From the NCBI GenBank assembly GCA_942493375.1, contig OW818698.1, forward strand, positions 5,032,568-5,096,567: a stretch of 64,000 nucleotides of DNA, read 5' to 3'. Below are positions 13,089 through 61,758 of this stretch, in pieces. Position 1 is the first letter of the stretch. Every line of letters starts with the position of its first letter. The stretch is from Abditibacteriota bacterium (GTDB lineage: Bacteria > Armatimonadota > UBA5829). The notes beneath the pieces are model-generated. The model saw only the letters and a list, made by a program, of their open reading frames with translations, was not told where the DNA came from and searched no databases. The position numbers and the translations under genes are program-made.

Positions 13089-13101
13089 TTCCGCAGCAAT
13101 C

Positions 13102-19079: not shown

Positions 19080-19081
19080 AT

Positions 19082-20470
19082 ATGTTCGTCAGTATTAAGG
19101 CCCGTTTGCTGCTCAGTCACCTGGGTGTTGCTTTACTCACCGCAATGGCAGCCTTAGGCTATATTTATGTTTCATTTACAAGAATGCAGGCTGACTACAG
19201 TGAGCATGCCCTGCTATCAAGTGCTTACACTCTGGCCGATGCTGTTGAGACTGACTTCGGCACTCAGCACGGACGAATCCAGATAAAGCATGCAATGGGT
19301 GAGCTTGCAGTGGAGGAGAAAGTCCAGTTTGCCGTGATGGAGATAGACGGCACTGTAATTTCTTCTACAGTTCCAGAGGTTTATGCCGGAAACAAGCTGT
19401 CACTGATGGAAAAGCTCAGCAGTGGGAAGCCAAATGTCTACCATCCCAAAGTAAACTCCCCAGATCAGAAGAGGATTATTGTCGATGTGCCGATTGAGCA
19501 GAACCATCAGGTTGTCGGCATAGTCAGAACCTGGATTCTCGAACGGGACTACCAGTCATCAATTAATCCCATCAAGCGGATTACTGGATTTGCTCTTGCC
19601 GGGGTAATGGTCCTCTGTATCGCACTGTCTCTGCTTCTTGCATACGCATTGATATCTCCCATCAAGAGAATGAAACGACTATCCAGACGTATTGCCCAGG
19701 GTGACTTTGGGATAAGGTTGGATAAAGTTGGAAGTGATGAACTGGGTGAACTGGCGACTGATCTTAATACGATGGCTGCTCAGCTTCAGGAACTTGAGAA
19801 CTCCCGCAGGGACTTCCTGGGAAATGTATCCCATGAATTGAGATCACCGATAAGCAACATCCGGATCACCAGCGAAGTGCTTCAAAGGCGTGCAGAGAGG
19901 CTGGGTGATGATTCTGCAAAGCTGTTTCAAACGGTGATTGTGGAGACCCAGCGGCTTGAAATAATGATAAACGAACTAATGGAACTTGCCGCGATCAAAT
20001 CCGGAGCCCTGGTGTTAAATAAGGAAGCGTTTAGTATAGAAGTCCTTATTGACGAGATAATGCCTGGCTTATTGATTCGTGCCCAACAAAAGCAGCAGGA
20101 TTTGGAAACAACTATCGATCCTGACCTGATGCTTTTTGCTGATCGGGACAGGATAGCCAGAGCTATATCGAATCTTCTGGATAATGCTATTAAGTTTACG
20201 CCAGTTACCGGACAGATAAAATTGCAAGCAAAACAAGAGCCGGATGTGGTGGTTATTGAAGTATCTGATACAGGTGAAGGCATATCGAACGATGACTTGC
20301 CAAAAGTATTTGAACGGTTTTATCGTGCAGACAAAGCAAGGCAGCGTGAAGGCGGATCAGGCATTGGGCTAGCCATAGTCAAGAACATAATCCTCGCACA
20401 CGGCGGCAGTGTTGATGTCAGGAGCAACGAAGGACACGGCAGCATATTCCGGATAATTCTTCCTGTGTAG
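19082..20470 (+). CDS. Sensor histidine kinase (two transmembrane segments, HAMP, HisKA, HATPase_c).
   Basis: H-box HELRSPISNI, N-box LDNAIKFT, G-boxes DTGEGI and GGSGIGLAIVK. The start overlaps the response-regulator stop (ggaggataaATG). Confidence 0.85.
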   Translation: MFVSIKARLLLSHLGVALLTAMAALGYIYVSFTRMQADYSEHALLSSAYTLADAVETDFGTQHGRIQIKHAMGELAVEEKVQFAVMEIDGTVISSTVPEVYAGNKLSLMEKLSSGKPNVYHPKVNSPDQKRIIVDVPIEQNHQVVGIVRTWILERDYQSSINPIKRITGFALAGVMVLCIALSLLLAYALISPIKRMKRLSRRIAQGDFGIRLDKVGSDELGELATDLNTMAAQLQELENSRRDFLGNVSHELRSPISNIRITSEVLQRRAERLGDDSAKLFQTVIVETQRLEIMINELMELAAIKSGALVLNKEAFSIEVLIDEIMPGLLIRAQQKQQDLETTIDPDLMLFADRDRIARAISNLLDNAIKFTPVTGQIKLQAKQEPDVVVIEVSDTGEGISNDDLPKVFERFYRADKARQREGGSGIGLAIVKNIILAHGGSVDVRSNEGHGSIFRIILPV

Positions 20471-31321: not shown

Positions 31322-32068
31322 ATGCACTATAGGATTAACACTATGCAATCCACAAACATGGATAAAAAAGAGAGATCAGTTGCATCGCAAGTCAGGAAGA
31401 TTATCTCTCAGTCGCCTGATAGCATCTGGACTTACACGGACTTTCATGATTTACCGCTTATGGCAGTTAGTCAGGCTTTGTCGCGGCTCCATCGAGAAGG
31501 AATGGTAAAACGGGTAAGAAAAGGGCTTTATTATCACCCAAAACAGACTGTTTTAGGTGAAAGTAGTGTTTCACCCGTTGCTTTGAGTTCGAAGCTTCTT
31601 TCCAGCGATGCCCGGCCTACTGGATATACTGCTGCACGGGTGCTTGGGTTAAACACCCAAGTTCCAGTTGAGCCGTCCTATGCGATTTCCAAGACTAAAG
31701 CACCTGCAAGCATAGCTGGTGTAAAACTGACTGTCCGTCGTCCTTTACCAACTCTCCATATAAGCACACGTGAAGCTGCTATCCTGGAGTTTTTGCGTGA
31801 AAGAGGGGAGACAAGTGAGTTGTCTCCCGAGAAGACCGTTAAAAGACTCCTGGATATTGTCAGAGAAACAGGAATATTCACCAACCTTACCGAAGCATCA
31901 ATGCATGACCCCCCACGAGTACGGGCTATGCTCGGGGCATTGGGGGAGGAAGCTAATAATGAACAACGAGAACTGATGAAGCTAAAATTATCACTCAACC
32001 CACTATCCAGGTATGATTTCGGGAGATTGAAATGTTTGAAATACGCTAAGGAGTGGCAAGCAAAATGA
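31322..32068 (+). CDS. abiEi: AbiEi-family antitoxin / transcriptional regulator (type IV toxin-antitoxin or abortive-infection system).
   Basis: Size and sequence resemble AbiEi/DUF6088 antitoxins. Its stop overlaps the downstream gene start in ATGA. The true start may instead be the Met at 31343. Confidence 0.55.
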   Translation: MHYRINTMQSTNMDKKERSVASQVRKIISQSPDSIWTYTDFHDLPLMAVSQALSRLHREGMVKRVRKGLYYHPKQTVLGESSVSPVALSSKLLSSDARPTGYTAARVLGLNTQVPVEPSYAISKTKAPASIAGVKLTVRRPLPTLHISTREAAILEFLRERGETSELSPEKTVKRLLDIVRETGIFTNLTEASMHDPPRVRAMLGALGEEANNEQRELMKLKLSLNPLSRYDFGRLKCLKYAKEWQAK

Positions 32069-33042
32069 TGCTACATGAGCATGATGATTTTGGCCCGATA
32101 TTGACCGAAGCGACTGCCTGGCTAAGGGGAAAACCTGGTTTTGAACGTATTACTACTCAGATTGTAGAGAAAGATTACTATGTAACTCAAGTATTGCGTA
32201 TTATCGCAGCTAAGCTGGGTGAAACAGTCCTGTTCAAGGGTGGTACAAGTCTTTCAAAAGGTTGGGGATTGATCCAGCGATTTTCTGAGGATGTTGATCT
32301 TTTTTTGAATCCGAAAGCTTTTGATCCTCCATTGGGAGAAAGCAGAATACAAAAGAAACTGCTTGAAATGAGAGATATAGTTGGAGGTAGGCAGGGACTT
32401 ACCTGGCTGCGAAATGACTCCAGAGTTGATAAAAAATCACGTGCCGATGTGTATTCCTATAATGCTAAGTATGAAATTAATTCCGAGATACCATCTGAAG
32501 TATTGATGGAGGCGGGCGTCAGGAGTGGGTATTTTCCCAGTGTGCAGGTGAACTTGGATTCTTATGTGGGAGAGTTTCTACGCAGTAAAGGTTTGGATAA
32601 CATTGCTGAAGATATCAGTCTTTTTCCAATGATGTTGTTGCACTTCAAACGCACTTTTATTGAGAAGCTGTTCACAGTATATTCCAAGGTAGAACTGATG
32701 TTGAATCATAATGAATCGAGTCTTGGTGACAACGCTAGACATTACTATGATTTGGTTCAACTCGCACGTACACCGGAGGTTCAGGAACTGTTAAGATCAC
32801 CTTATGAGATAGCAGAGATCATCGAAAATTATTATGCAATTACTCAGAAGCATTTTCCAAAAAGTCCACTTCCTGACACACACCGTCTATGTGATAGCAG
32901 GGCACTTTTTCCGGATAAGGACCTTAGGCATATCTTGGCAAATGCATACAAAATACAGTGCGATAGGCTATGTTATACGTACAATTACCCATCTTTTGAT
33001 GAGGTTTTAGGTGAGTTTGAGAAGATGCGTGAGTTTATATGA
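32065..33042 (+). CDS. abiEii: AbiEii/AbiGii-family nucleotidyltransferase toxin (DUF1814).
   Basis: KGGTSLSK followed by RFSEDVDLF gives the GS...DxD nucleotidyltransferase motif. The ATG at 32065 overlaps the AbiEi stop. RBS aaggag. Confidence 0.65.
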   Translation: MMLHEHDDFGPILTEATAWLRGKPGFERITTQIVEKDYYVTQVLRIIAAKLGETVLFKGGTSLSKGWGLIQRFSEDVDLFLNPKAFDPPLGESRIQKKLLEMRDIVGGRQGLTWLRNDSRVDKKSRADVYSYNAKYEINSEIPSEVLMEAGVRSGYFPSVQVNLDSYVGEFLRSKGLDNIAEDISLFPMMLLHFKRTFIEKLFTVYSKVELMLNHNESSLGDNARHYYDLVQLARTPEVQELLRSPYEIAEIIENYYAITQKHFPKSPLPDTHRLCDSRALFPDKDLRHILANAYKIQCDRLCYTYNYPSFDEVLGEFEKMREFI

Positions 33043-33130: not shown

Positions 33131-35398
33131 TTGATGTCACTTGAAATAACCGTAAATGGCAAATCTGAATACGTAATCGCTGCCTCAGAGGACCAGATTC
33201 CATCTGAAATTACAGCATCAAAGGAATTGCAGACATACATAGCCAAATCCACCGGAGCAACGCTGCCGATTGTCAATGAATCGGACATAAAGCCGGATGC
33301 ACCAGCTATATTAGTTGGACGAACAGATTTTGCTAAGTCTGCCGGACTAATCCCCGATGGAGAAGAGCAGTGGGTTATTAAGACTATTGGCAACCGGTTG
33401 GTCCTCACAGGGGGCCGTCCGAGAGGCACTCTGTATGCTGTCTATCACTTCCTGGAAGACCATCTGGGTGTGCGGTGGTGGACTATATGGGATGAGACTG
33501 TTCCCAACCATAGCAGCTTATCAATAGCAGATACCGACCGTTCGGGTGAACCGGGGTTTGCTTACCGGGATATATATGATGCCGAGGTCCCATGGCCCAA
33601 AGAGTTCTACGCACGGAACAGAGTCAACGGCCACTTCTCGTTTGTTCCATGGGAGTATGGCGGGACTATCCAGTATGGTCCTCCTCACCATGTGCATACA
33701 TTCGACCACTACTTCCATCCGGACGAATACTACGATACCCATCCTGAGTATTTCTCCCTGTCCAAAGGCGAACGCATCCGCAATGGCCAGCTCTGTCTCA
33801 CTAACAAGGATGTATTCAAAGAGTGGATAGCTAAGATGAAGGAATACATCAAGACTTCATATGCTGAGGCAGACAGTAAGGGCGAACCCAGGCCTGTTTT
33901 CTTCTCGATCTCCCAGAACGATTGGGAAGGCAGCTGCGAGTGCGACTGCTGCAAAGCTATCTATGAAAAAGAGAACCACTCCGGGCTCTCATTAATGTTC
34001 GTAAACGCTGTCGCAGCAGAGATCGAAAAGGAATATCCCGAAGTCCTGATCGATACCCTGGCATACTGGTTCTACGAAGAAGCTCCCAATTCTATCAAAC
34101 CGCGGGACAACGTAAGGATACGGGTTTGTGATTTTGGTGAGGATGTCATGCATCCTATTACCCACGAAAACAACAAGCAGGGCCTCAGAAGACTGGGTGA
34201 ATGGGCGAAGATCACCAAACACACAAACATCTGGAAATACGGGGTCATATACTCTCCGAACCTGCCTATCCCCAGCCAGTTGGACTATGCCGAAGATGTC
34301 AAAGCATACAAAGCTAACGGTGTAGAGGGAGTATTCATAGAGCTGGAAAACATAATGACTACAGACATGTGGGAGATGAAAGCATGGATGCTGGCGAAGC
34401 TCTACGAAGACCCGTATGCTAACTCCGAAGCCCTGGTAAATGACTTCACCAACGGTTACTACGGCCCCGCTGGCCTCTATATCCGTGAATACCTAAATGC
34501 AACACACGATGCCTTGCAGAAAACTCCAAGCTATATAAACTTCGGAGGGACTGCATCTAAGTATTCCTATATAACTTATGACCTGATCCGCACCTGCAAC
34601 GCAATATTTGAAAAGGCAGAAGCTGCTGTATTGGGTGATGAATTCCTATTAGACAGAGTCAGGATGGCCAGAACATCAGTAGACAGGGCAATCTGTTACA
34701 GGACAAAAGACCTTGTGAATGAGTATGAAAACGGCGGAAGCAAAGGCGATTTCGGCCTTTCGGTGGAAGTCTCATCCAAGAGGGCATCTGCCATACTCCG
34801 CAAAATATCTGATCTCAGGTTTGGTGATTGTCAAAAACACGCGCGAGATGGATATGACCAGGCAGGTGTGCTTGAAATGGTCTCCAGCCTACCAGTATCA
34901 GTCCCGCTGCCTGAACAGTTTGCAGCAATGCCAAAGGACAATGTCTTCGATTTCTCCCCCAAAGACTTCAGGCTGGTTGGCCCGATAGTAGTCAAAGACC
35001 CTGGAGCTGACTTCGGAGCTGCTGCCAAACTGGACTACGTAATGTCCGGTTCAGATGCAGCGAAGTTCATAGTATCAGAAACAGAAGGCATGCCGATGGG
35101 CCTCTGCAACGTCAGCGAACACGTATTCGGGGAGACCAGATACATTAAACAGGGAGACATCAAACCTGGATACACCTACTACAAACTCAATAAAGCCAAG
35201 TTCCACCCGTCCGAGTATTTCAACATGTTCTGGGACTGGACATTGCAGCTGGACCTGACCCCAACAATGAATGAAAACCTCGACCAGGAATACGAAATTT
35301 ACGCATCCATAAAATTCGAAGGACCTTTGTTCTCCAACGGAGAACCAGCAAACACGAATGGGATATATGTGGAGAGGATAATAGTTGTTCGAGTCTAG
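33131..35398 (+). CDS. DUF4838/GH20b-like paralog 5, N-terminally truncated (no signal peptide). Possibly non-secreted or a decaying copy.
   Basis: Begins LMSLEITVNGKSEYVIA, which aligns to residues about 26 onward of paralog 4. An in-frame TGA lies 21 codons upstream. No hydrophobic leader. The core is intact. Confidence 0.55.
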   Translation: MMSLEITVNGKSEYVIAASEDQIPSEITASKELQTYIAKSTGATLPIVNESDIKPDAPAILVGRTDFAKSAGLIPDGEEQWVIKTIGNRLVLTGGRPRGTLYAVYHFLEDHLGVRWWTIWDETVPNHSSLSIADTDRSGEPGFAYRDIYDAEVPWPKEFYARNRVNGHFSFVPWEYGGTIQYGPPHHVHTFDHYFHPDEYYDTHPEYFSLSKGERIRNGQLCLTNKDVFKEWIAKMKEYIKTSYAEADSKGEPRPVFFSISQNDWEGSCECDCCKAIYEKENHSGLSLMFVNAVAAEIEKEYPEVLIDTLAYWFYEEAPNSIKPRDNVRIRVCDFGEDVMHPITHENNKQGLRRLGEWAKITKHTNIWKYGVIYSPNLPIPSQLDYAEDVKAYKANGVEGVFIELENIMTTDMWEMKAWMLAKLYEDPYANSEALVNDFTNGYYGPAGLYIREYLNATHDALQKTPSYINFGGTASKYSYITYDLIRTCNAIFEKAEAAVLGDEFLLDRVRMARTSVDRAICYRTKDLVNEYENGGSKGDFGLSVEVSSKRASAILRKISDLRFGDCQKHARDGYDQAGVLEMVSSLPVSVPLPEQFAAMPKDNVFDFSPKDFRLVGPIVVKDPGADFGAAAKLDYVMSGSDAAKFIVSETEGMPMGLCNVSEHVFGETRYIKQGDIKPGYTYYKLNKAKFHPSEYFNMFWDWTLQLDLTPTMNENLDQEYEIYASIKFEGPLFSNGEPANTNGIYVERIIVVRV

Positions 35399-43838: not shown

Positions 43839-44582
43839 TTGAGTTGGACACATTTTATAGCATTGATCCCACTAAACTCCCCGCTGCAGCGCGATTTCTA
43901 TGCTGAGATGTGCCGTATTGAACACTGGAGCGTTCGCACGCTTCGCCAAAAAATCGCTTCAATGCTCTATGAACGCACAGCTTTGTCGAAAAAATCCGAA
44001 GAACTGGCCCGTATCGAACTCGATTCCCTGCGTGAAGAAGATAAACTAAGCCCTGATCTTATCTTCCGCGATCCCTATGTTCTTGATTTTCTTGGATTGA
44101 ATGATGTGTTTCAGGAAAAAGACCTGGAAGCTGCAATCATTCGCGAAATGGAGTCTTTTATACTGGAACTTGGTGTGGGTTTCTGTTTTGTTGCCAGGCA
44201 GAAACGCATAACGGTAGATGATGACGACTTTTATCTCGACCTTCTCTTCTTCCACCGAAACCTGCGGCGTCTGGTCGCCATCGAATTAAAATTAGATAAG
44301 TTCCGACCAGAGCACAAAGGACAAATGGAACTCTATCTACGCTGGTTGGATAAATATGAGCGCAATGAAGGCGAGGATTCACCCATTGGCTTGATCCTTT
44401 GTGCGGGTAAAAAGCAAGAACAGATCGAACTGCTGGAACTCGTCCATTCAGACATTCATGTCGCAGAATACCTTACTGCACTTCCACCAAAGGAATTACT
44501 CCAGGAGAAACTTCAAAAAGCCATTGCACTCGCCCGTAAAATGCAAGCTGAACGGACAAACGCGCAAGATGATGCAAGGTGA
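43839..44582 (+). CDS. DUF1016/YhcG-family PD-(D/E)XK nuclease, apparently N-terminally truncated.
   Basis: C-terminal YLTALPPKELLQEKL and the preceding block are typical of YhcG. At 247 aa it is shorter than the usual ~340 aa. Confidence 0.5.
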   Translation: MSWTHFIALIPLNSPLQRDFYAEMCRIEHWSVRTLRQKIASMLYERTALSKKSEELARIELDSLREEDKLSPDLIFRDPYVLDFLGLNDVFQEKDLEAAIIREMESFILELGVGFCFVARQKRITVDDDDFYLDLLFFHRNLRRLVAIELKLDKFRPEHKGQMELYLRWLDKYERNEGEDSPIGLILCAGKKQEQIELLELVHSDIHVAEYLTALPPKELLQEKLQKAIALARKMQAERTNAQDDAR

Positions 44583-49065: not shown

Positions 49066-52000
49066 CTACTCTTTACATCTCTCAATAATAACCACAGCAG
49101 CGTCATCTGTCAGGTGTCCCCCACTGAAGTCCAGCGCAGTTTTGAATAGCGCTTCCAGGGTATCGGCGGGTGAGTTGCTGATGCAGTTTTCCAATAAAAG
49201 ACATATACCATCGGTGTTGAGCATGGAAGAGCTATTGTGCGATTCACTTATTCCATCGGTGTACATAACCATCTGGTCACCAGGAGCAAGATGGGATTTG
49301 TCGAGTGTATAATCACCATCATTTACAACTCCAATCGGAAATGAACCACTATTCAATAGCTCAACATCACCCGCTGACTTTTTGACCATAACCGTTGGGT
49401 GTCCTGCACTTGAGTAAGTGAATCCACCTGTTTCCGGATCAAGCACAGCCAGGAACGCTGTTGCGAACCGTTCATAAATGGGACTCTGGATTATGACTGT
49501 GTTTGCATGGTTGAGTGCCTGTGCAGGGTCTCCCATATCGTATGCAAATGCGCGGACAGTGCTCCTGGTTGCAGCGGCCATTGCTGCAGATTCTATCCCC
49601 TTGCCCGAGACATCCCCTATCAGTATGGCGGTCTTGCCATCTTCCGTTTCAAATACATCGTAAAAGTCTCCGCCAACCTGCTTACCTGCGGCGCCGGGAA
49701 TGAATCTGGTAGCTAACTGGTATCCGGGAGTTATATGCGGGTCACCAGGGAGCAGCGCCTGCTGGAGCATACTGTGATCCTCCGCTAATAATTTACGGAT
49801 TACCTCTGCATCGAGTTTTGCCTGGTGTTCAGCTTCGAGGAGACGAGAGGCTATAAGAGCCAAAGATACTGCAAGGCCCATCTTGTGAGCGCATTCTATG
49901 TCGTCATCTGCAAATTCGACGAGTTTAGCTGTGCTTACAAGTGAAAGGACTCCAAGCAATTCCTTTCCCGCTATCAAAGGTATGCCAAGGATAGATCGCA
50001 TACCATATTCGTCGCACATTTCAGAACTGATCCTGACATCTGACCTGGTATCATTTATAGCTGTGGGTTGAATCGTTTCAGAGACAAGCACATGGTATGG
50101 TGCCTGCTCTGCAGTAAACTTCAGTCCAGGGGAGAGCTTTGCTTCGTTAGAAACGTATCGCACTACCCAGAGACCATCCTCATTCACAGTGATCATGCCC
50201 AGGTCAACACCAACAGCTTCAGCAGCTTCTACCAATACAGCGTGCATGACACTATCGAAATCCATAGTGGAGCTGATTGCTACGTGGATAACATTGAGCG
50301 CCCGGCTCAAACTTTCACTCCTTAACAACGCTGTTTCCAGGTGCTTTGGTTTTGTAATATCACTGAATGTGATTACAACACCGTCAATAACATTGTCCAG
50401 GGTCATATAAGGCATGATGCGCATGATAAACCAACGCCCGTCAGTGCTCTCTACCTGGCATTCCTGTACTGAAAGCGTGTCTAGTGCACTAAGGACATCA
50501 TGCTCAATAGTGTCATATTTCAAGTTCTGAGTGATATCAGTTATCGGCCTTCCAATATCTATAGAGCGGATGTTGAAAGTTCCAACTACAGCTGGTGTAA
50601 ACATCTTGATGCGTAGGTCATTATCAAGGAATATAGTAGCGACCTGTGCGCCGTTCATCAGGTTGACTATGTCGTTTTTCAAAGCGGTTACATCGTCAAT
50701 TCTCGATTTGAGTTCCCCATTGAGTGTCATCTGCTCTTCTTTGGATGTTATCAGCTCTTCGTTGGTGCTCCGAAGCTCCTCGTTTGTTGACTGGAGTTCT
50801 TCGTTGGTCGATTTCAACTCCTCAGAAGTTGATTCCATCTCCTCCAGCGTAGTTTGCAGACGTTCTTTTGTAAACTCAAGTTGCTGTTCAAGCTCCGAGT
50901 ATCTGGCTTCAGGTTCACCTGAAAGCTGTGTGGTTATCTCTGCAACCTCAGGAGTTTCCACATCATCAAATGCTACGACGAATAACTCACTTGAACCTAC
51001 TGGCCGGGGTAATGGGCTTATAGTTACATCAACCTTCTGATAGCTGCCATTAGTCTTTACATTCAAAGCTTTGAGAAATACGATGCTTCTGTTTGCAGCT
51101 GACCTGCGTATTGCATTTGGTAGTTCCAGCTTAAGTCCTTCGCGGGCCATTGCTCCTACGTTCCAGTTTGCTTTTCCCTCAGCCGGTTCCAGATACTTAC
51201 CAGTCTTTCCACTAATTAGCACAATGTCTCCATCTGCAGCTACTACAACAGATGGAGGGGCGTATCTTTCAAGAAGCGTCTTTTGCAGCGCTTCTTTTAC
51301 ATCCATTATGGCGTATTTTTCCAGGTCCTCAAATTTTGGTGTCTCAACAAGAGGAGCACGGAATGGGATACTCATTAAGCGTGTCTGGTTTGCAGTGGTT
51401 TCTTTGCGTCTGAAGATTTTCCACTTCTTTTCGATGGTGGCAAACAACTCATCCAGGCTGCCAATGTCTTCCACCGTTCCCATAAATAGAATACCATCCG
51501 GGCTTAATGAATAATGGAAGATAGGAATGACCTTTTTCTGCAGTTCGGGGTTAAAATAAATCAACAAGTTCCTGCACGAGACCATATTCATTCTTGTAAA
51601 TGGAGGATCAGCTGTCAGGTCTTGACGTGCAAAAACTACTGTATCACGGATCAATTTCTTAACCGCGTATCCACTTTCTGTCTGGTTAAAGAATCCATGC
51701 AGGCGTTCCGGTGATATATCATTCGCAATTTTTGCCGGATAGAGTCCTTTTCGGGCTACTTCTATTGCTCGCTCGTCGATATCCGTGCCGAATATCTGCA
51801 GCTTGATTGCCGCATTTGGTCGCAATCTATCAAGACATTCACGCAGCAATATAGCCAGCGAATATGCTTCCTCGCCTGTTGAGCAAGCCGGCACCCAGAC
51901 TCGAATTGTACCTTCCAGAGGAGCGTTCTTTACCAATTCAGGGATAACCTTGTCCTGAATATAATCAAATGCTTTAGGATCCCTGAAGAACTGGGTTACT

Positions 52001-52890
52001 GCTATCAGGAGTTCCCGGAAAAGGGCGTCTATCTCTTCGGGATTCTGTTCTATATAACGAGTGTATCCGGATATGCCATTTATCTGGAATAAGTTGGCGC
52101 GTTTTTCAATACGTCGGTACAGTGTGCTCTTTTTGTAAAGTGAGAAATCATGGCTGGTGTGAGTTTTAAGCAGCTGCAAAATCCGTTGTAACTCACCAGG
52201 AGGTTGATTGCTACTATCAAAGACATCTTTCTGCCGTACAGGCACATGGTTTACATAGTCCACAAGCTGGATAGGGAGTTCATCGATTGGAGCTACAAAA
52301 TCAACAAGGCCTGTGCTGATCGCGCTTTTTGGCATACTGTCGAACTTTGCGGAGTCCGGGCTTTGCACAAGAACAATCCCGGATGCTTCCTTAATACTCC
52401 TCAATCCAAGTGTTCCATCATTACCCATGCCCGAAACGATCACAGCAATGCTCTTGTCACCATATTCTGAGGCAAGACTCCTGAAGAACGAATCTATAGG
52501 CAAGCGATGACCGTGAGGTTCTACTGGTTCACTTAGTTTCAGGTGGCCGTTAGAAATGGAGAGGCTGGTGTTTGGAGGGATCACATAGATGTTATCTGGT
52601 TCAACTAAAACCCCGTCTTGAATCTCATTGACAGGTATTTTCATAGAGCGTTGCAGCAGTTGAGGGACAAGGGCCTTGTGGTCAGGGTCAAGATGCTGGA
52701 TCACCACGAAAGCCATTCCAGTATCCGGAGGTATACCCGCAAAAAAACGCTCGAAAGCCTCCAAGCCACCTGCAGATCCTCCTACAGCTACAATGTATCC
52801 TGGCTTCTTGACTGGCTCACTGGGTGGATGCGTATCCACAGGAGACACAACTACATTCTGTTTCCTGGACTGCTTACGTTCACTACTCAT
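49066..52890 (-). CDS. Multidomain signalling protein: CheB methylesterase, CheR methyltransferase, coiled coil, PAS, GAF and a PP2C/SpoIIE-type phosphatase.
   Basis: CheB: VAVGGSAGGLEAF...VVIQHL. CheR: VWVPACSTGEEAYSLAILL. The repeat EELKSTNEELQSTNEELRSTNEEL is typical of CheBR fusions. PP2C: GGDFYDVFE...LIGDVSGKG. Confidence 0.8.
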   Translation of the reverse strand: MSSERKQSRKQNVVVSPVDTHPPSEPVKKPGYIVAVGGSAGGLEAFERFFAGIPPDTGMAFVVIQHLDPDHKALVPQLLQRSMKIPVNEIQDGVLVEPDNIYVIPPNTSLSISNGHLKLSEPVEPHGHRLPIDSFFRSLASEYGDKSIAVIVSGMGNDGTLGLRSIKEASGIVLVQSPDSAKFDSMPKSAISTGLVDFVAPIDELPIQLVDYVNHVPVRQKDVFDSSNQPPGELQRILQLLKTHTSHDFSLYKKSTLYRRIEKRANLFQINGISGYTRYIEQNPEEIDALFRELLIAVTQFFRDPKAFDYIQDKVIPELVKNAPLEGTIRVWVPACSTGEEAYSLAILLRECLDRLRPNAAIKLQIFGTDIDERAIEVARKGLYPAKIANDISPERLHGFFNQTESGYAVKKLIRDTVVFARQDLTADPPFTRMNMVSCRNLLIYFNPELQKKVIPIFHYSLSPDGILFMGTVEDIGSLDELFATIEKKWKIFRRKETTANQTRLMSIPFRAPLVETPKFEDLEKYAIMDVKEALQKTLLERYAPPSVVVAADGDIVLISGKTGKYLEPAEGKANWNVGAMAREGLKLELPNAIRRSAANRSIVFLKALNVKTNGSYQKVDVTISPLPRPVGSSELFVVAFDDVETPEVAEITTQLSGEPEARYSELEQQLEFTKERLQTTLEEMESTSEELKSTNEELQSTNEELRSTNEELITSKEEQMTLNGELKSRIDDVTALKNDIVNLMNGAQVATIFLDNDLRIKMFTPAVVGTFNIRSIDIGRPITDITQNLKYDTIEHDVLSALDTLSVQECQVESTDGRWFIMRIMPYMTLDNVIDGVVITFSDITKPKHLETALLRSESLSRALNVIHVAISSTMDFDSVMHAVLVEAAEAVGVDLGMITVNEDGLWVVRYVSNEAKLSPGLKFTAEQAPYHVLVSETIQPTAINDTRSDVRISSEMCDEYGMRSILGIPLIAGKELLGVLSLVSTAKLVEFADDDIECAHKMGLAVSLALIASRLLEAEHQAKLDAEVIRKLLAEDHSMLQQALLPGDPHITPGYQLATRFIPGAAGKQVGGDFYDVFETEDGKTAILIGDVSGKGIESAAMAAATRSTVRAFAYDMGDPAQALNHANTVIIQSPIYERFATAFLAVLDPETGGFTYSSAGHPTVMVKKSAGDVELLNSGSFPIGVVNDGDYTLDKSHLAPGDQMVMYTDGISESHNSSSMLNTDGICLLLENCISNSPADTLEALFKTALDFSGGHLTDDAAVVIIERCKE

Positions 52891-53151
52891 GCATACCCCT
52901 TGTTGCTAAGCCATACAATGGATAATCATCCGGGTCATAATGTATCAAAAGAGTTAACCCATATATTTGTAACTATATGAGTATACCCAAATCGACCGAG
53001 AAAATTATGCGTTTATACAACTTCTTGCAGGTACAGTATACGCTTTTATTTGCAACAAGGTACGAAAGAATGAGTCTAGTTCTTCTACTGAGATGATCTG
53101 GTATTGAAGTGCTCAGCTTGACACCAACAAGAGATAAAACCTACAGTAGGT

Positions 53152-53331
53152 TTATTTCCCCAGTATCTCCTCAACCTGACCGACCTTTTTCTGGACTTTA
53201 CCGGTAGTGTTTTCGATTTTGCCTTCTGTTTTAAGCTTGGGATTATCTGTTATTTTCCCAACTGCTTCCTTTACGTTACCTTTTGCTTCGCGAACACTAC
53301 CTTTGATTTTGTTATTTGTGCTGGCTTTCAT
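53152..53331 (-). CDS. CsbD-family stress-response protein.
   Basis: MKASTNNKIKGSVREAKGNVKEAVGKITDNPKLKTEGK matches CsbD repeats. RBS aaggag upstream of the re-assigned start. Confidence 0.65.
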   Translation of the reverse strand: MKASTNNKIKGSVREAKGNVKEAVGKITDNPKLKTEGKIENTTGKVQKKVGQVEEILGK

Positions 53332-53663
53332 TATATATCTCCTTCTTGGTATAAAATGGATCATTTGTATCATACCCGCATATATACTATTTCAACAAAT
53401 GAATATAAATGGCTGTTCTGGGCGATTTATTTGCAGATGATATTTGCAATATTAACTGCAGGATAAATATAATTGAACTATTATGTGCAATAGATGAATG
53501 ATGCGGGTTAGTTAGCTCCTGGTATGATTGGGTATAGTATAAGGAGCGGTAATGCTGTGGTTGTCCTGGGTATTTTTGAGATTACTTCTGTGCAACCTCA
53601 TATGCATCTACCTTCTCACCTATACCGGGCAAGCTAATGACATCAGAAAACGAGTAACTATCA

Positions 53664-54260
53664 ATGAAAACCAATATTACAGCCAAAGACTTTCCTGTAG
53701 TCTGTGTGGGCGGTTCAGCTGGCGGACTTGATGCCTATACCCGGCTACTGCAGCATCTACCTGATGATCTGGGTGTTGCTATTGTCATCGTAAATCATCT
53801 ACGGACCGTAGCCACCTTGCTCCACGAGATTCTTCCACGCTTTACCGGTATGCCGGTGGAATTGATCAGTGAAAAACTGGACATTGAACCCAACCACGTA
53901 TACATAATTCCGGAAAAGCGGGATATGCACGTTCTTGACGGAGAATTCCGATTGGAGCCGATATCAAAACCCCATGGTTGGCCGGATGTTATTACAGTCT
54001 TCATGCGTTCCTTAACAGAGCAGTGGGACGGCAAACTGATCGCTGTCATTGTATCGGGTTATGATGGTGATGGAGCAGCAGCGCTATGTGGCATTAAAGA
54101 AGTTGGAGGCATTACTATTGCACAGAAACCAGAGACAGCCATACAACCAGATATGCCTGAAAGCGCAATTGCCAGTGGTTGTATAGATTTTATTCTATCT
54201 CCCGAGGATATTGCCAAGAAAATTTCGAGCATTGCCCGTGCAGTGACCCAGAGTGAGTAA
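53664..54260 (+). CDS. Stand-alone CheB-type methylesterase catalytic domain (no receiver domain).
   Basis: VVCVGGSAGGLDAYTRLL...VIVNHL parallels the N-terminal domain of 49066..52890. Confidence 0.65.
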   Translation: MKTNITAKDFPVVCVGGSAGGLDAYTRLLQHLPDDLGVAIVIVNHLRTVATLLHEILPRFTGMPVELISEKLDIEPNHVYIIPEKRDMHVLDGEFRLEPISKPHGWPDVITVFMRSLTEQWDGKLIAVIVSGYDGDGAAALCGIKEVGGITIAQKPETAIQPDMPESAIASGCIDFILSPEDIAKKISSIARAVTQSE

Positions 54261-55656: not shown

Positions 55657-56802
55657 CTACGGATTGGTCTTGACTATATTTCCTTCTTCAAGTCCGGATT
55701 TGATCTCGGTATACTTCCCGTCGCTCAAGCCAATTTCTACGATCCGCTGTTTCCATTCCTTGCCTTCCTGCAACTTCACCGCATAGTGCTTGTCAACTTC
55801 GTATACAGCGTTTGCAGGCACTGCAAGTACGTTTTGAACTTCGCCTACTTTGATTGATACTGTAGCTTCCATGCCTGGTTTAGCCTCACCCTTGGTGTTC
55901 TTGAAGTCCACTAGTGCAACATATTTTTGCCCTTGCAGGAATCCTGCTTTTTCCGAGTAGATCTCATCCAGTGAACCAGGAAAGTCCACGTTAGGTACTT
56001 CTGTAATCGTTACAAGGGTAAGGTCTTTCGGTTTCAATAAAACAAGATGCTCTTCTCGAATTCCAGCAGCAACTTTCAAAGCTTCCAGATTGACTACAGT
56101 TACTAATGGTTGCTCGCTTTCCGGGTCGGGAACGGTACCTACTTTTACATTCACTGCAAGCACAGTGCCGTTAATTGGTGATTTGACCTGAGCGGATTTG
56201 CCACCGGCCTTTGCGGCCTGGAACTGTTCCTGGGCTGTAACAACCGCCTGTTGGTAAGAGATAAGTCCTTCGTTCATCCTGGCTTGTGCATCGATAACTG
56301 CCTGTTCGTCAGCCTGTCTGTTCGCTGATGGGACAGTTGTGTCCACTGGACTGACCCTTGCATTTCTTTCTATCGATCGGGATGATGCAAGTTGCTGTTG
56401 AGCGGATCTAAGGTCCTGGCTGAATTGTTTTCGTGCCTGGTCAAGGGATCTCTGTGCACTCAATAGCGCAGTGCGTGCCTGGTCGTAATAGACTACATTT
56501 TGAGGAGCCGAGAACAGGATGAGGGTCTCGCCGCGGCTGACGCTTTTCCCCACAGTTACATATACTTTGTCTATTGGCACCTGGTAAGGTGACCGAATAT
56601 CTGCCCTTGCCGAAGCAGGTGCAACGACTGTTCCCTCCGCTGGTAAATAAGCTGTGATATCACGCTTACCGGCGATCGCTTCAGATGACTTTTTTGCGCA
56701 TCCGGTTATCATAACAACCGATAACACAAGGGATAATATCCCAATTACAAATAGTACCGATCCAATTCCCACTTTGCTATGATATAGTTGTCGCAACATC
56801 AT
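55657..56802 (-). CDS. HlyD-family membrane-fusion / periplasmic adaptor protein.
   Basis: N-terminal transmembrane anchor, a long coiled-coil (Q/A-rich) and beta-barrel/lipoyl-like flanks. Length 381 aa. Confidence 0.65.
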   Translation of the reverse strand: MMLRQLYHSKVGIGSVLFVIGILSLVLSVVMITGCAKKSSEAIAGKRDITAYLPAEGTVVAPASARADIRSPYQVPIDKVYVTVGKSVSRGETLILFSAPQNVVYYDQARTALLSAQRSLDQARKQFSQDLRSAQQQLASSRSIERNARVSPVDTTVPSANRQADEQAVIDAQARMNEGLISYQQAVVTAQEQFQAAKAGGKSAQVKSPINGTVLAVNVKVGTVPDPESEQPLVTVVNLEALKVAAGIREEHLVLLKPKDLTLVTITEVPNVDFPGSLDEIYSEKAGFLQGQKYVALVDFKNTKGEAKPGMEATVSIKVGEVQNVLAVPANAVYEVDKHYAVKLQEGKEWKQRIVEIGLSDGKYTEIKSGLEEGNIVKTNP

Positions 56803-57083
56803 ACCACCTCTGTTTATAATAAAAAACCCGGTAGTGGTTATCGATTCTCACCTGATAACCACTACCGTTCAACTTTACTCATGTCATACTACGTCTGCCT
56901 GATAGCAGATTGATTATTAACACAATCACTGCTACAACCAGCACCAGGTGGATAAGGTTACCACCCACGTGCCCCAGCAGACCTAGAAACCACAGGATTA
57001 CCAGAACCCCGATTACTGTCCATATCATCGTAGTTACCTCCATTCCATAGTCACTCATATATCATTAGGTGTATAATTTACTG

Positions 57084-57452
57084 TTAATTGGGCGGTATCA
57101 CTGAGTCCTGACCTGGCTCACCTTGTTCGCCAGTTGCTCCTGTTGCACCCGTATCACCCGTCGCACCTGCTGCTCCTGCAGGACCCGCAGTTCCGGCAGC
57201 TCCCTGGTTACCCTGGGCAGCCGGAGCTCCAGCTGGACCCTGCAGACCCTGTGGGCCAGGTGTTGTTACTGCAGGTTGTGCTATTACAACTGTGTTTTGG
57301 TGGTTTGGGGCATACCACGCGAAATACCCGATCATGAGCCCTACGATTACTACTACCAGGACTGCTATTATTGCCGTCCAGGCAGATCTCTCCTCTGATG
57401 AGGGATCTGAGGAACCAACTATGTATGTTCTCATAACAATCACTCCATTCAA
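57084..57452 (-). CDS. Small membrane-anchored collagen-like (Gly-X-Y repeat) protein.
   Basis: A transmembrane helix followed by GPQGLQGPAGAPAAQGNQGAAGTAGPAGAAGATGDTGATGATGEQGEPG, about 17 consecutive G-X-Y triplets. Confidence 0.55.
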   Translation of the reverse strand: MNGVIVMRTYIVGSSDPSSEERSAWTAIIAVLVVVIVGLMIGYFAWYAPNHQNTVVIAQPAVTTPGPQGLQGPAGAPAAQGNQGAAGTAGPAGAAGATGDTGATGATGEQGEPGQDSVIPPN

Positions 57453-57515
57453 TTTCTAATGGTTCCCAGGTCTGAATACTCAATCAGACCTGGATGCTGA
57501 TTTGTCGATACGACT

Positions 57516-57950
57516 CTATATTCGTATATCTATAAGCGCGCTTACGCCGACTCCATAGATCCTCTTTATGTTACTTGTCGTCTTGCTGCCTACCGGGACA
57601 AGGGCTTTAGCACGGATATTTGTTCCGAAAACCTTATCGCCTTCAATCTGGACGACAGCTTTACACTTAGCAACATTCTGTTTGGTTCCTATAACCTGAG
57701 CAGCTCCAATATATCCGCCGCTGCCGATTGATAGTATTGGCACTACAGCAGTCGCCTGCTGGGTGCCCACGTTCTTGTTTGCGGTCAGTGTATTCACGAA
57801 TTTATTGATCTGACCACCAAATTTACTGACTACAAACCCTATACCCCCAACCTTCACTACATCGCCTATCAAACTGCCAAAACAAGCTGCTGTAGTCAAA
57901 GATATGATTAAGGTTGCAACCAGTAGTAGTCTTTTAATTCTTGTATTCAT
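57516..57950 (-). CDS. Secreted protein or lipoprotein, hypothetical.
   Basis: Signal peptide with a Cys near the cleavage region. Confidence 0.45.
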   Translation of the reverse strand: MNTRIKRLLLVATLIISLTTAACFGSLIGDVVKVGGIGFVVSKFGGQINKFVNTLTANKNVGTQQATAVVPILSIGSGGYIGAAQVIGTKQNVAKCKAVVQIEGDKVFGTNIRAKALVPVGSKTTSNIKRIYGVGVSALIDIRI

Positions 57951-58038
57951 TTTTCTACCTCACATTAATTACTGAGCATCGGTAAGATGATAAGTACCTA
58001 TCTACAGTATTCCCACGCACAATTATGAATAAAGCGGG

Positions 58039-58764
58039 TTAGTCATTTTTCCCGTTTTCCTTTGCGCTGTTGTTTCGTTTCGAGTGGTTATCAGGATAAT
58101 ATTTACCCTGTCCTGAAGTTGGCTTATTGCTTTTCATTTTGCCGTGACCACTCATATTGTCATTCTTCGATTTATCAAGGGTGTTATATCTACCTTGCCC
58201 TGAAATATGCTTATTGGTCTTTTGCTTTGTATTGTTGTCTACTCGTCCGTCGTTTGAATGACCCGGATTACCGTTACCACGCACACCCCATGCCGGTGCC
58301 CAGGGTGGGGGACCGGAATTCCAGGGAGGACGGGTATTCGCTTTCATTTTTTTCCAGCCGTTTGGACCTTTTATTGTTACTTCGGACTTGCTCCTGTCAT
58401 AGCTAACTGGGATGTCATAATACTTCTTTAATGCGGATGCAGGGACATAAGTCACACCATTTATAAGCACAGGAGCTGATTGAAGTGTGACAGGTTGACC
58501 AGCAAACATAGCATCAAGGCTGTTTGGAGTCAGAACGAGTTCCTCTCCCTGGTAGTTCATAGTAGCATTGTTGTTTGCCGCATCCCATTGCAACGGTGCT
58601 CCTAATAAATCGGCAACACCGCCTAGAGGGAGATAGCTGAGTCCTTGATACAAAAACGGCATTATCGTATTAATATCAATGGCGCTGTTAGCTTTGACAG
58701 ACATCCATGTAGAGCTCAGCACTACTGTCGTTAATGCCAAGACTAGAATACTTCTCTTTTTCAT
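58039..58764 (-). CDS. Secreted copper-amine-oxidase-N-terminal ('stalk') domain protein with a basic low-complexity C-terminus.
   Basis: Start moved to MKKRSILVLALTTVVLSSTWMSVKA. NGVTYVPASALKKYYDIPVSYD matches the stalk domain. Confidence 0.55.
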   Translation of the reverse strand: MKKRSILVLALTTVVLSSTWMSVKANSAIDINTIMPFLYQGLSYLPLGGVADLLGAPLQWDAANNNATMNYQGEELVLTPNSLDAMFAGQPVTLQSAPVLINGVTYVPASALKKYYDIPVSYDRSKSEVTIKGPNGWKKMKANTRPPWNSGPPPWAPAWGVRGNGNPGHSNDGRVDNNTKQKTNKHISGQGRYNTLDKSKNDNMSGHGKMKSNKPTSGQGKYYPDNHSKRNNSAKENGKND

Positions 58765-58851
58765 GGTAATCATCCAGTCTGCATTATTCACCAAGCTTCG
58801 CTTTTGTCCGGTATTAGGGACAAAAGCTGAGTCAATCATGAATAATGCGGG

Positions 58852-60516
58852 TTAGTTTCCTTTGACCGTAACTATGGTCGGTTCCGATTCGTTTTCATTG
58901 GCATATATGGTTGTCGCGGTGATTGTATACTCGGTGCCCTTGCCGCTTATTAGCGTTGTAAGGTTGATCGGAGTTGATTTGAACTTCCCCTTTGAGTCCA
59001 CATCAATAGTCTGGTCTGACAACTGACCATTTGTCTCGAAAAGTCCGAGGATCTTGGTTGTATAATCCAGCTTAAGGTTTACACTGGAATTGGGTGGCGC
59101 TATACCGGTGATAATCAGAGGTGAGACAATGCTCTTTCCTTCGACAGGAGCAGTTATTACTGGTGCACCAGCAGCTACCGCAGTTGAAGTGTTTATAGTT
59201 GTCTCTGAAGTGGTTGTATAAGTCTGTCCGGATGAGGTCTTAAACGAACCTGCAATTGATGCCATATTTAAGTCCTGACCCTTTCGGACTGTATACTGGC
59301 CCTCGTAGTTACCAGAGGAAGTTTCCTGCATACTCCGGGTAACAAGTTGCAGGCCCTTAGGTGAAATAATCGAGAAAGTAACTTTGCCATTGGGTTGTCC
59401 CACCAGATTGGCAGTAATTACATCGCCGGGTTGCAGGTTGGATATGTCAGAATGAGTGAACGATTTGATTATGTTTTCTGCTCCCTGCACATCGAAAGAC
59501 CATGCTAGAGTCGTTGTGTTGCCTGCCCGGTCATAAGTTGCCACTTTTACATTGTTCAGCCCACTCCGCAGAGAGTCCTGAGGTCGGTAAGTTGCAAAGT
59601 TTTTGGTGATGATGGCTAAGTCCGTTACATCGACACCATTTACAGACATACTCACTCTTGCCGGGTCAATTCCGCTGCCATTGTCTTCGGTGACTACCGA
59701 TATACTAGGGCGAAGTGCAACGACAGTGCTCTTTGGATCTGGCGTCCCATTGATGATTTTTGGAGCTATAGTGTCAATTGAAACCGAGTTCCCCGCCTGT
59801 ATCAGGCGTTGTGTGTTTCCTATGCGCAACTGTCCCAGTACTTTACCATCTGTAACCGTCAGGTTCTTTGCAGCTGGAACTGTCCACTTTCCAACATACT
59901 GGCCCGGGCTGACTTCTTTCATCACGACTCCATCAACTACTCCTGGTATCTCAAATGTAGCCCCACCACCGGAAGTTGCTTCCATAACAACCTCAAGGAC
60001 CGATCCCGCTTTGAGCCAGCCATTCGAGTTCTGGGTGAATGAAGATATATTCGCTGTTGTCGCTGTCGGCGCTGTTGGCGGAGTTACTGGCGACGCAGTA
60101 GTGTTTATCATCACTGTCCGGGTTATGTTATCCCACGCAACATCAGATCCCAGCGCTTCACTCAGAAATCGCAGAGGGACAAGAGTGCTGCCGCCGATTA
60201 TCTGTGCAGGAACATCAAGGGTCACTGTGTTTCCGTTAACCGTTGCGGTTTTGGATCCTATCCGGAGCTGGACGTCAGTACCACTTTTTTGTGCGAACAC
60301 GGTTTGACTAGCAGCTTCCCATCCAACAAATGCTCCCATCTGTTCCAGAACTCCGCGCAGCGGTACCATTACCCGTCCCCGAACTGCCATCGGTTGTGTG
60401 CCCTGGAAACGGACTGGAGAACCATTAATGGCTACGTTTAATGACTGAGCCATGCCTGGGCCGATAGCGGCTGCCAGTAGTGTTAAGACAAAAATATAAC
60501 ATGTAAAGCGTTTCAT
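58852..60516 (-). CDS. Secreted stalk-domain (Cu_amine_oxidN1-like) protein with Ig-like repeats.
   Basis: Start moved to MKRFTCYIFVLTLLAAAIGPGMA (RBS gagga). VMVPLRGVLEQMGAFVGW and STLVPLRFLSEALGSDVAWD match the stalk domain. Confidence 0.6.
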   Translation of the reverse strand: MKRFTCYIFVLTLLAAAIGPGMAQSLNVAINGSPVRFQGTQPMAVRGRVMVPLRGVLEQMGAFVGWEAASQTVFAQKSGTDVQLRIGSKTATVNGNTVTLDVPAQIIGGSTLVPLRFLSEALGSDVAWDNITRTVMINTTASPVTPPTAPTATTANISSFTQNSNGWLKAGSVLEVVMEATSGGGATFEIPGVVDGVVMKEVSPGQYVGKWTVPAAKNLTVTDGKVLGQLRIGNTQRLIQAGNSVSIDTIAPKIINGTPDPKSTVVALRPSISVVTEDNGSGIDPARVSMSVNGVDVTDLAIITKNFATYRPQDSLRSGLNNVKVATYDRAGNTTTLAWSFDVQGAENIIKSFTHSDISNLQPGDVITANLVGQPNGKVTFSIISPKGLQLVTRSMQETSSGNYEGQYTVRKGQDLNMASIAGSFKTSSGQTYTTTSETTINTSTAVAAGAPVITAPVEGKSIVSPLIITGIAPPNSSVNLKLDYTTKILGLFETNGQLSDQTIDVDSKGKFKSTPINLTTLISGKGTEYTITATTIYANENESEPTIVTVKGN

Positions 60517-60639
60517 AGCGTGTTCCTCATTGCGTTGACCCTGAACCCGGGAATCTTGCGGAGTCTTGTGATTCTGAGGGTGATAGTTGGAGGCGGTGGG
60601 CATTCCCAGGCGCCTCATTCCATCCTGTATAGAATTGGG

Positions 60640-61389
60640 TTAATCAATCCGCAGTATTTTTGATCTTTGGTTCCAGTAGGATGTCTTGCCAGTCAGCATA
60701 TTAATATAGCTGGAAGGAACATATATCGTTCCGTTAGAAATACGGGAAGCCAGTTTCATTCTGACAGTCTTTCCATTGACATTGACTGTTCTTGTCCCTA
60801 CAGTGTGTTGGGTCTTTGCAATACGACTGTTGGCACGGATTGTTTTTGAGTTTGCATCATATACGAATGGTATATTGATGGACTTCATAACTTGCTTGAA
60901 AGGAAGCATCAAGTTTCGTCCGGTCATATAGGGCTTGGTGCTTGCAAGTGGCACTTTCCAACTTGGACCAGTGGACAGATTCTCAACGTTCGGGTTGTGT
61001 TGAGCTCTAACCTGAGGCAGGATTCGGCGCATATTTTTCGCCCAGTAATTGGCCAGGCCTGTAGGAGTTTTGCCATATGATTTTGCATCGGCTGGGGTGA
61101 CAGTAGTAAATAGTGAATTGTCTACAAAGATGCTGCTGCCCATTCCGTATTTTCTAACTGTGATTGAAGGCAGTGTCTTGCGCTCTCGCAGAAGTTCATT
61201 AGCACGCCCCTGCAAGATATCAACACGCTGCTCTAGAGTGAGGTCACCTGCACCGTTATGAACTGTGAAAAGAGGGGAGTTTGCAAACCATACTTTTTTG
61301 CTTTGCTGAGCCCATACTGATGAGCACAATAGCACAGCTATTGCTGCCAGGATGGTTGATAGAATTGTTAATCTGATACTTTGTTTCAT
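60640..61389 (-). CDS. Secreted protein with a 'VWFANSP' N-terminal module and a stalk-domain C-terminus (family chimera).
   Basis: Start moved to MKQSIRLTIL... (RBS aaggag). The N-terminal domain matches 13102, 61759 and 62906. C-terminus NVNGKTVRMKLASRISNGTIYVPSSYINMLTG is stalk-like. Confidence 0.55.
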   Translation of the reverse strand: MKQSIRLTILSTILAAIAVLLCSSVWAQQSKKVWFANSPLFTVHNGAGDLTLEQRVDILQGRANELLRERKTLPSITVRKYGMGSSIFVDNSLFTTVTPADAKSYGKTPTGLANYWAKNMRRILPQVRAQHNPNVENLSTGPSWKVPLASTKPYMTGRNLMLPFKQVMKSINIPFVYDANSKTIRANSRIAKTQHTVGTRTVNVNGKTVRMKLASRISNGTIYVPSSYINMLTGKTSYWNQRSKILRID

Positions 61390-61758
61390 TTTATTCTTTC
61401 TCCTTGAGGTCTCTGTGTGCGTTTGCAACATTTGAGGCATCCTGCACATAATATATCATGCCCAATTCATACAAGATTCAACCTTGACTCACTTATATTT
61501 TCAAAATATCACGAATTATTTGCTAATATCTTAGTATGTCTGAACAATAAGGTCGGTTGCACGTATAATAATGGAACATGTATGTGATTTGTTGTGGAAG
61601 AAAGGCATGTGTTTTCGGGGTAATTTGGCTCGAAATACTATGAAGATTTGATCAGGATTGTTGCTTGTAGTATGCGATTTGGTTGATAAGGTTGCCGGAA
61701 TCCTGTCGTCATTGACAGGATTCCGGACACTTTGCCTGCAAACACCAGGCTCTTTGTC

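Follow-up and report, generated by a model that had tools for sequence, protein, structure and literature searches.

A CheB-CheR fusion protein of the Armatimonadota with a candidate methyl-accepting helix and a SpoIIE-type phosphatase output

Here we describe a gene from a 64-kb stretch of genomic DNA of an Abditibacteriota bacterium (contig OW818698.1, positions 5,032,568 to 5,096,567; ‘the window’ refers to this whole stretch). It encodes, in one chain of 1274 amino acids, a CheB methylesterase domain, a CheR methyltransferase, a PAS-like domain, a long helix with regularly spaced Glu-Glu pairs, a PAS_10 domain, a GAF domain and a C-terminal PP2C serine phosphatase (Table 1). By its domain composition, the protein is a new output variant of the widespread, functionally uncharacterised CheBR (CheB/CheR fusion) family. 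We propose, with a probability of about 0.5, that it contains a self-methylating sensor helix which tunes a phosphatase acting on a phosphorylated STAS-type partner. Two elements of this description, the PAS-like domain at residues ~531–643 and the fit of the Glu-Glu repeats to the consensus of receptor methylation sites, go beyond the initial annotation of the window.

The CheB-CheR-PAS-GAF-PP2C architecture itself had been put forward in that annotation, and every domain is supported by Pfam matches far beyond the curated cut-offs, with concordant NCBIfam assignments; the SpoIIE (PF07228) match, for example, scores 154.2 bits against a cut-off of 25. The ATG start codon is preceded by an AAGGGG ribosome-binding site, and scans for a promoter and a terminator gave results no better than shuffled sequence. 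No HisKA, HATPase or receiver domain was detected in the protein by Pfam. Residues 495–1274 were modelled as a monomer with AlphaFold2 (AF2) from a 46-sequence alignment, with a mean predicted local distance difference test (pLDDT) score of 78.6 and a predicted TM-score (pTM) of 0.41. Residues 492–530 lie between the CheB/CheR enzyme pair and the sensor body, are poorly conserved in the homologue alignment and probably form a flexible tether. The domain that follows bears the conserved motifs YAPP, SG(K/R)TGKYLE and MAREGL in an alignment of 22 sequences, and a Pfam scan of residues 495–690 returned zero matches, even at E < 10; its PAS-like label is taken from the order of secondary structures in the AF2 model alone. 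A 29-residue helix is modelled between PAS_10 and GAF, and the PP2C domain is modelled confidently (pLDDT ~90). The protein is a soluble, cytoplasmic and probably dimeric sensor phosphatase.

The catalytic triad of the CheB domain (S39, H66 and D158) aligns with S164, H190 and D286 of Salmonella CheB (1a2o), while the CheR motifs FFRD, ACSTGEEAYS, TDID and CRNLLIYF align with the structures 1af7, 1bc5 and 5ftw. Both the triad and the CheR motifs (as FFRD, CSTGEE, TDID and CRNxxIYF) are invariant across 22 full-length relatives with 50–89% identity, of which the named ones are Armatimonadota metagenome-assembled genomes (MAGs), and the motifs of both enzymes are also kept in 29 distant CheBR representatives. 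A check of the PP2C metal-binding aspartates came out in favour of the initial annotation: D1075, D1093, D1212 and D1262/D1263 are all present, align with the corresponding aspartates of SpoIIE, RssB and Rv1364c, and are invariant among the same 22 homologues. One could argue that the CheB and CheR domains have become non-enzymatic sensor or scaffold modules, reporting for instance the levels of S-adenosylmethionine or S-adenosylhomocysteine. The invariance of the CheB triad and of the S-adenosylmethionine-binding and catalytic motifs of CheR down to 50% identity, together with their retention in the 29 distant representatives, makes this very unlikely.

The fusion is not a product of assembly. 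The gene is a single uninterrupted open reading frame (ORF), an identical protein in NCBI comes from an 8,198,536-bp contig, and about 36 further 90%-identity clusters carry the full same domain set at 49–89% identity, the named members again being Armatimonadota MAGs. Relatives with the same colinear layout and identical domain junctions, at 50–89% identity, come from JGI, ENA, NCBI and Logan assemblies. Since the same architecture recurs in independent assemblies, the gene is no chimera, a concern that had been raised with the first description, and the probability left for an assembly chimera or fused pseudogene is negligible. Three representatives at only 35–40% identity (32% in the PP2C domain) also end in GAF-PP2C, so the architecture is present in at least one second, distant lineage. 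A profile search with the C-terminal alignment of the fusion gave matches dominated by actinobacterial PP2Cs.

The ‘STNEEL’ coiled-coil repeats pointed out in the initial annotation resolve into six in-register Glu-Glu heptads. The pairs stand at 683/684, 690/691, 697/698, 704/705, 711/712 and 718/719, exactly seven residues apart and each in the context E-E-x-x-S/T-S/T, and the heptad phase carries on into PAS_10. Pairs 690/691 to 718/719 are invariant in the 22 homologues. The window protein and its 89% relative have one heptad (7 residues, EELQSLN) fewer than the other 20 aligned members; exactly one heptad being missing, the register of the helix is kept and there is one candidate site fewer. 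The pattern extends over the family as a whole. In a sample of 120 CheBR proteins from many phyla, one archaeal MAG included, 109 contain at least three heptad-spaced matches to [EQ][EQ]xx[ASTG][ASTG], with a mode of five and about 0.6 in shuffled sequences, and 28 of the 29 distant representatives have at least two in-register heptads regardless of their output domain. A logo over 633 heptads reads E(0.99) E(0.98) L/M x S/T T/S/A N.

In chemoreceptors, Glu-Glu sites of the form E-E-x-x-small-S/T lie seven residues apart on a long helix (PMC1079850, PMC2535941), and the FrzCD methylation sites at 168, 175 and 182 show the same seven-residue spacing (PMC2535941). The context E-E-x-x-S/T-S/T is also what CheR and CheB recognise on chemoreceptors. 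The heptad repeat therefore matches receptor methylation sites both in its local consensus and in its spacing. We infer that the Glu-Glu helix is a substrate of the fusion's own CheR and CheB, a built-in methyl-accepting helix, because the near-invariance of the E-E pairs across phyla, coupled near-universally to CheBR in one chain, is otherwise hard to explain.

Many ORFs of 180–310 residues among the homologues P0391–P0510 consist of a Glu-Glu heptad helix and PAS_10 only, examples being P0408, P0438, P0459 (Geobacter sulfurreducens) and P0443 (Geomonas). Some of them have their start within motifs that are conserved in CheBR, and these are probably CheBR genes that were split or truncated; in others the N-terminus is their own, and these could encode free-standing methyl-accepting proteins.

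An alternative is that CheB and CheR work in trans, on conventional chemoreceptors or other products of the genome, that the Glu-Glu helix is a signalling helix of structural role only, and that the sensor-PP2C part regulates or localises the enzymes or that enzymes and phosphatase do unrelated jobs. CheR and CheB are, after all, known receptor-modifying enzymes, Salmonella CheR is reported to methylate the non-receptor protein PhoP (PMC8546571), the ORFs with only the helix and PAS_10 make trans substrates conceivable, and the genome extends beyond the window that was scanned. Against this, a Pfam scan of 46 ORFs over all 64 kb found no CheA, CheW, methyl-accepting chemotaxis protein (MCP), STAS or RsbW-type gene, which bears out the lack of cheA, cheW and MCP genes noted initially, and no che or MCP genes were found in the related loci examined either. 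Coiled-coil structure would also hardly explain why the E-E pairs are nearly invariant across phyla and nearly always share a chain with CheB and CheR. We consider action in trans unlikely and retain the fusion's own helix as the preferred substrate.

The phosphatase belongs to the SpoIIE/RsbU/RssB/SiaA class by Pfam, NCBIfam and Foldseek, the best Foldseek matches being 3ke6, 3f79, 6k4e and 5ucg. Structural matches comprise the RsbU domain of Rv1364c, RssB of P. aeruginosa, SiaA (6k4e), SpoIIE and RsbX, and also PppA (6jkv). The linker helix and PP2C of the fusion share 54% identity with a receiver-PP2C in one related locus (L010) and 56% with that in another (L093). The latter locus carries the fusion gene of the 56% relative (10001..13882) and, divergently adjacent to it, a PAS histidine kinase followed by the receiver-PP2C (5842..9568, minus strand). 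Within it, the linker and PP2C of the fusion encoded there are 75% identical to those of the neighbouring receiver-PP2C over 245 residues. The pair has the look of two input branches whose phosphatases are paralogous, and the high identity suggests that a module was exchanged recently and that both inputs feed one pathway. STAS and RsbW-like HATPase_c_2 genes occur 4–6 kb upstream of a distant CheBR-GAF-PP2C gene (P0376, locus L091). A general mode of control has been proposed for SpoIIE-type PP2C dimers, in which GAF, PAS, HAMP or receiver domains act on them by way of a coiled-coil linker (PMC12143880). Given the kinship of the PP2C, its identity to receiver-PP2Cs, the STAS and RsbW-like genes near P0376 and this proposed mode of control, partner switching is the most likely pathway for the phosphatase.

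Coupling to partner switching had been suggested from the outset. It stands as plausible on the indirect grounds just given; the partner itself did not turn up, since cognate STAS or anti-sigma kinase neighbours were found neither in the window nor in loci L001–L006 and L093, and were seen only in the distant L091. The lack of STAS or RsbW genes near the fusion gene in the window or five related loci also favours a different kind of target, such as substrates of Ser/Thr kinases or a SiaC-like or metabolic protein, as do the varied targets of the SpoIIE family, SiaA and PppA being among the structural matches. We assign such a target a low probability: the best matches in sequence and structure (Rv1364c, RssB, SpoIIE and RsbX) are PP2Cs of partner-switching or sigma pathways, the fusion PP2C is a close paralogue of RsbY-like receiver-PP2Cs, and one distant family member has STAS and RsbW-like genes in its vicinity.

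In the mechanism that we propose, the CheR and CheB domains would methylate and demethylate the glutamates of the array, either in cis or across the dimer. As many as 12 negative charges could be neutralised in each helix pair, which would change how stable the coiled coil is or shift its register, and this change would set the gain or baseline of the PAS and GAF signals that the helices relay to the phosphatase dimer. The Glu-Glu helix would thus be an internal element of adaptation or memory, comparable to that of chemoreceptors. The target of the PP2C domain would be the phosphorylated form of a STAS anti-sigma antagonist, or of a comparable protein of a partner switch, whose gene lies elsewhere in the genome; the fusion would act in parallel with the receiver-PP2C phosphatases of the same lineage and in this way control a transcription programme of the stress type. 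The neighbouring stand-alone CheB might, as a guess, serve as a second, constitutive esterase on the same type of helix.

Several points weigh against this mechanism. The strict receptor motif [ASTG][ASTG]xx[EQ][EQ]xx[ASTG][ASTG] has a single match in 24 proteins and none in the window protein, the small residues lie one position nearer to the E-E pair than in that motif, and Gln is nearly absent at the heptad sites, unlike in many chemoreceptors. The AF2 model is a monomer of low pTM, so inter-domain geometry and dimerisation are not established by it. A STAS or anti-sigma partner is absent from the window and from within 10 kb in five Armatimonadota-type loci, and the sole co-location with STAS and RsbW, in L091, is not an operon. 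In the literature we found no measured methylation for any CheBR fusion. Finally, the scan covered the 64-kb window, and MCPs and CheA may be encoded elsewhere in the 8.2-Mb genome.

Bacteria and archaea have thousands of CheBR fusions (two homology searches gave at least 8000 candidates each), which go under the family name ‘two-component system CheB/CheR fusion protein’ in JGI. Members share the same N-terminal 850 residues, comprising receiver-less CheB, CheR_N and CheR, the PAS-like domain, the Glu-Glu helix and PAS_10, and the window protein is 46–57% identical to proteins from many phyla and archaea. The family features are present in it: a receiver-less CheB with its triad, CheR_N and the CheR motifs, and an array of EELQSTN-like Glu-Glu heptads followed by PAS_10. 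Family members differ in what comes after. Close relatives mostly stop after PAS_10 or add PAS domains, whereas long members mostly continue into histidine-kinase modules, with or without receivers; among 29 long representatives obtained by 50% clustering, the outputs are HATPase_c in 18, a receiver in 8 and GAF with SpoIIE in 3. PP2C is a minority output of the family. The initial statement that CheBR fusions usually end in a histidine kinase therefore holds for the long representatives but not for the closest homologues, most of which have no output domain (CheBR-PAS_10 with or without extra PAS domains). A literature search on CheBR, PAS_10, STNEEL and HWE kinases with CheB/CheR yielded passing mentions only and no functional study, and no paper discussing a PP2C-ending CheBR was found; such proteins are already annotated automatically as “SpoIIE family protein phosphatase” or “chemotaxis protein CheB”.

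By its domains, the fusion belongs to the CheBR family and to the SpoIIE PP2C family, and not to the RsbK/RsbM/RsbY module of B. cereus, which it resembles and which is its closest studied analogue. In that system, the signalling helix of RsbK, a CHASE3-HAMP-GAF kinase, is methylated by RsbM, an enzyme of the CheR type. The methylation represses sigma-B signalling via the receiver-PP2C RsbY, which starts a partner switch, and a dedicated esterase is not known (PMC4574943). Both systems combine a CheR-type methyltransferase, a GAF-containing cytoplasmic sensor and a SpoIIE-type PP2C outside chemotaxis. The B. cereus module, however, is made of three proteins, relies on His-Asp phosphotransfer from the kinase to the receiver-PP2C and has no esterase paired with RsbM, whereas the fusion holds all parts and an esterase in one chain, has no kinase or receiver, skips the phosphorelay and carries its helix N-terminal to the PAS_10 and GAF domains. 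The general-stress phosphatases of the RsbU, RsbP and RsbZ types likewise join a sensor (GAF or PAS) through a long helical linker to a SpoIIE-family PP2C (PMC12143880), but they are without CheB, CheR or a Glu-Glu heptad array, and the fusion for its part has no adjacent cognate STAS gene. With the chemotaxis set of MCP, CheR and receiver-CheB, the fusion shares E-E-x-x-small-S/T sites at seven-residue spacing on a long helix and the same enzyme families. It differs in having no MCP signalling domain, no coupling to CheA and CheW and no receiver on CheB, in placing the enzymes and the candidate substrate helix in one polypeptide, and in having a phosphatase rather than a kinase output. With neither a CheB receiver nor a che context, it lacks what defines an adaptation system of chemotaxis.

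Near the fusion gene lie a stand-alone, receiver-less CheB gene and a gene for a CsbD-like protein, and both assignments, made in the initial annotation, are confirmed by Pfam. The stand-alone CheB is 40% identical to the CheB domain of the fusion, and the aligned catalytic Ser, His and Asp are kept. It adjoins the fusion gene only in the 89% relative and is absent beside the 72%, 67%, 58% and 56% relatives, and it was rejected as a conserved neighbour on this ground. The protein belongs to a clade of strong conservation, with more than 120 distinct 90%-identity clusters at 82–96% full-length identity to it. The few named members carry the MAG labels Methanobacterium, Prolixibacteraceae/Mangrovibacterium, Desulfuromonadaceae and Desulfobacterales, that is, different phyla and one archaeon, with at least one label from a 3-kb contig. 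Compared with two clade homologues, the gene has 82–84% amino-acid identity and about 51% third-codon identity, which indicates an old divergence under very strong purifying selection; the low third-codon identity led us to reject recent horizontal transfer as the cause of the conservation.

An exhaustive search showed this clade to be tight. Next to it come a few stand-alone proteins at 48–63% identity, and below these, at 42–49%, short proteins are mixed with CheBR fusions of 1000–1700 residues, so that the kin of the orphan CheB are CheB domains of the CheBR type. In four different contexts the orphan gene stands alone, and in one of them a CheBR-PAS_10 gene lies 8 kb off. No conserved neighbour was found among the loci examined, and comparison of the sequence upstream of the stand-alone CheB genes revealed neither a conserved RNA nor another conserved element. 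We guess that its slow evolution reflects a common and highly conserved substrate, the Glu-Glu helix for example. Tentatively, the CheBR proteins, the ultra-conserved orphan CheB and possibly the helix/PAS_10 proteins might form a chemotaxis-independent system of reversible glutamate methylation whose methyl-accepting helix is part of the sensor itself and which, in this lineage, gives a stress-type partner-switching phosphatase adaptation or memory.

The csbD gene lies upstream of the fusion gene on the same strand, between it and the stand-alone CheB gene, and probably starts at the ATG at 53331, behind an AAGGAG ribosome-binding site. It also stands beside the fusion in the 89% relative. 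CsbD was rejected as a conserved partner of the fusion: the 59-residue ORFs beside fusion genes in L005, L006 and L007 are unrelated to it. A block of genes at 55657..61449 (minus strand) recurs by the fusion gene in 67–89% relatives (L001, L004 and L005) and comprises a membrane-fusion protein, small ORFs, a collagen-repeat protein (57084..57452), a 144-residue ORF and several Cu_amine_oxidN1 proteins; its recurrence is probably inherited gene order and not a functional link.

The rest of the window contains glycoside hydrolases, six DUF4838 paralogues, a P-type ATPase, an OmpR-type two-component pair, an AbiE pair and cell-surface-type proteins. Five of the DUF4838 paralogues form a same-strand array, mostly with TTG starts and with GH20-type hydrolases close by, and the AbiEii-type toxin-antitoxin pair (31322..33042) is inserted between the fourth and fifth copies of this array. 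A full-length P-type cation ATPase (14341..16941, minus strand) is accompanied by a 226-residue ORF (17545..18225, minus strand) that matches only the N-terminal part of such an ATPase and is probably a truncated duplicate; a zinc-ribbon protein is encoded between the two, and the pair adjoins the OmpR-type regulator and a HAMP kinase (18384..20470). The match of a YhcG-type PDDEXK nuclease ORF (43839..44582, plus strand) is confined to the final third of the DUF1016 N-terminal domain, and the ORF looks 5'-truncated.

Table 1 Coordinates of the fusion gene, its domains and other features. Positions are those of the window unless a locus is named.
Feature	Residues	Position	Strand	Basis and remarks
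CheB-CheR-PAS-helix-PAS_10-GAF-PP2C gene	1–1274	49066..52890	-	1274 aa, ATG start
CheB_methylest domain	34–207	52270..52791	-	Pfam E 2.5e-56; without receiver
CheR_N and CheR SAM-dependent methyltransferase	233–284 and 298–491	51418..52194	-	Pfam; CheR E 2.4e-51
Probable flexible tether (low confidence)	492–530	51301..51417	-	AF2 pLDDT <50, model residues 1–36
PAS-like alpha/beta domain	~531–643	50962..51300	-	AF2 helix and five-strand sheet, pLDDT mostly 62–82
Unbroken 78-residue helix, heptad-phased, continuing into PAS_10	670–747	50650..50883	-	AF2 model residues 176–253
Six Glu-Glu heptads, candidate methyl-accepting sites	683–719	50734..50844	-	Translation EEMESTSEELKSTNEELQSTNEELRSTNEELITSKEE
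PAS_10	743–846	50353..50664	-	Pfam E 4.6e-27; AF2 PAS fold at 751–844
GAF domain	877–1012	49855..50262	-	Pfam GAF E 3.5e-11, GAF_2 5.5e-08; AF2
52-residue linker helix from GAF to PP2C	995–1046	49753..49908	-	AF2 model residues 501–552
SpoIIE-type PP2C (PPM) serine phosphatase	~1057–1271	49078..49722	-	Pfam SpoIIE 1084–1271, E 5.1e-45
CsbD-like small stress protein	59 aa	53152..53331	-	Pfam CsbD E 1.9e-17; longest ORF to 53373
Stand-alone receiver-less CheB catalytic domain	198 aa	53664..54260	+	CheB_methylest only, Pfam E 5e-46; divergent from csbD
Orphan CheB copy, locus L001		8651..9247
Orphan CheB copy, locus L007		10001..10597
Orphan CheB copy, locus L008		10001..10588
Orphan CheB copy, locus L094		10001..10600
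DUF4838 paralogue	~741–781 aa (six paralogues)	5515..7740	-
DUF4838 paralogues, array of five		20772..23114, 23904..26249, 26389..28731, 28855..31194, 33131..35398	+

The textbook mechanism by which chemotaxis adapts is reversible glutamate methylation. To our knowledge, sensory adaptation and memory by methylation are so far known only from chemoreceptors, and we know of essentially one studied case of glutamate methylation outside chemotaxis, that of RsbM on RsbK. That the orphan CheB has evolved so very slowly suggests that it has a conserved partner. If the Glu-Glu heptads are indeed the substrate of their own chain, CheBR proteins would be self-adapting one-component sensors, and in the PP2C variant one soluble protein would offer its phosphatase activity as a simple read-out of the methylation state. 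Were this to hold, methylation-based adaptation would extend to the control of stress responses and sigma factors.

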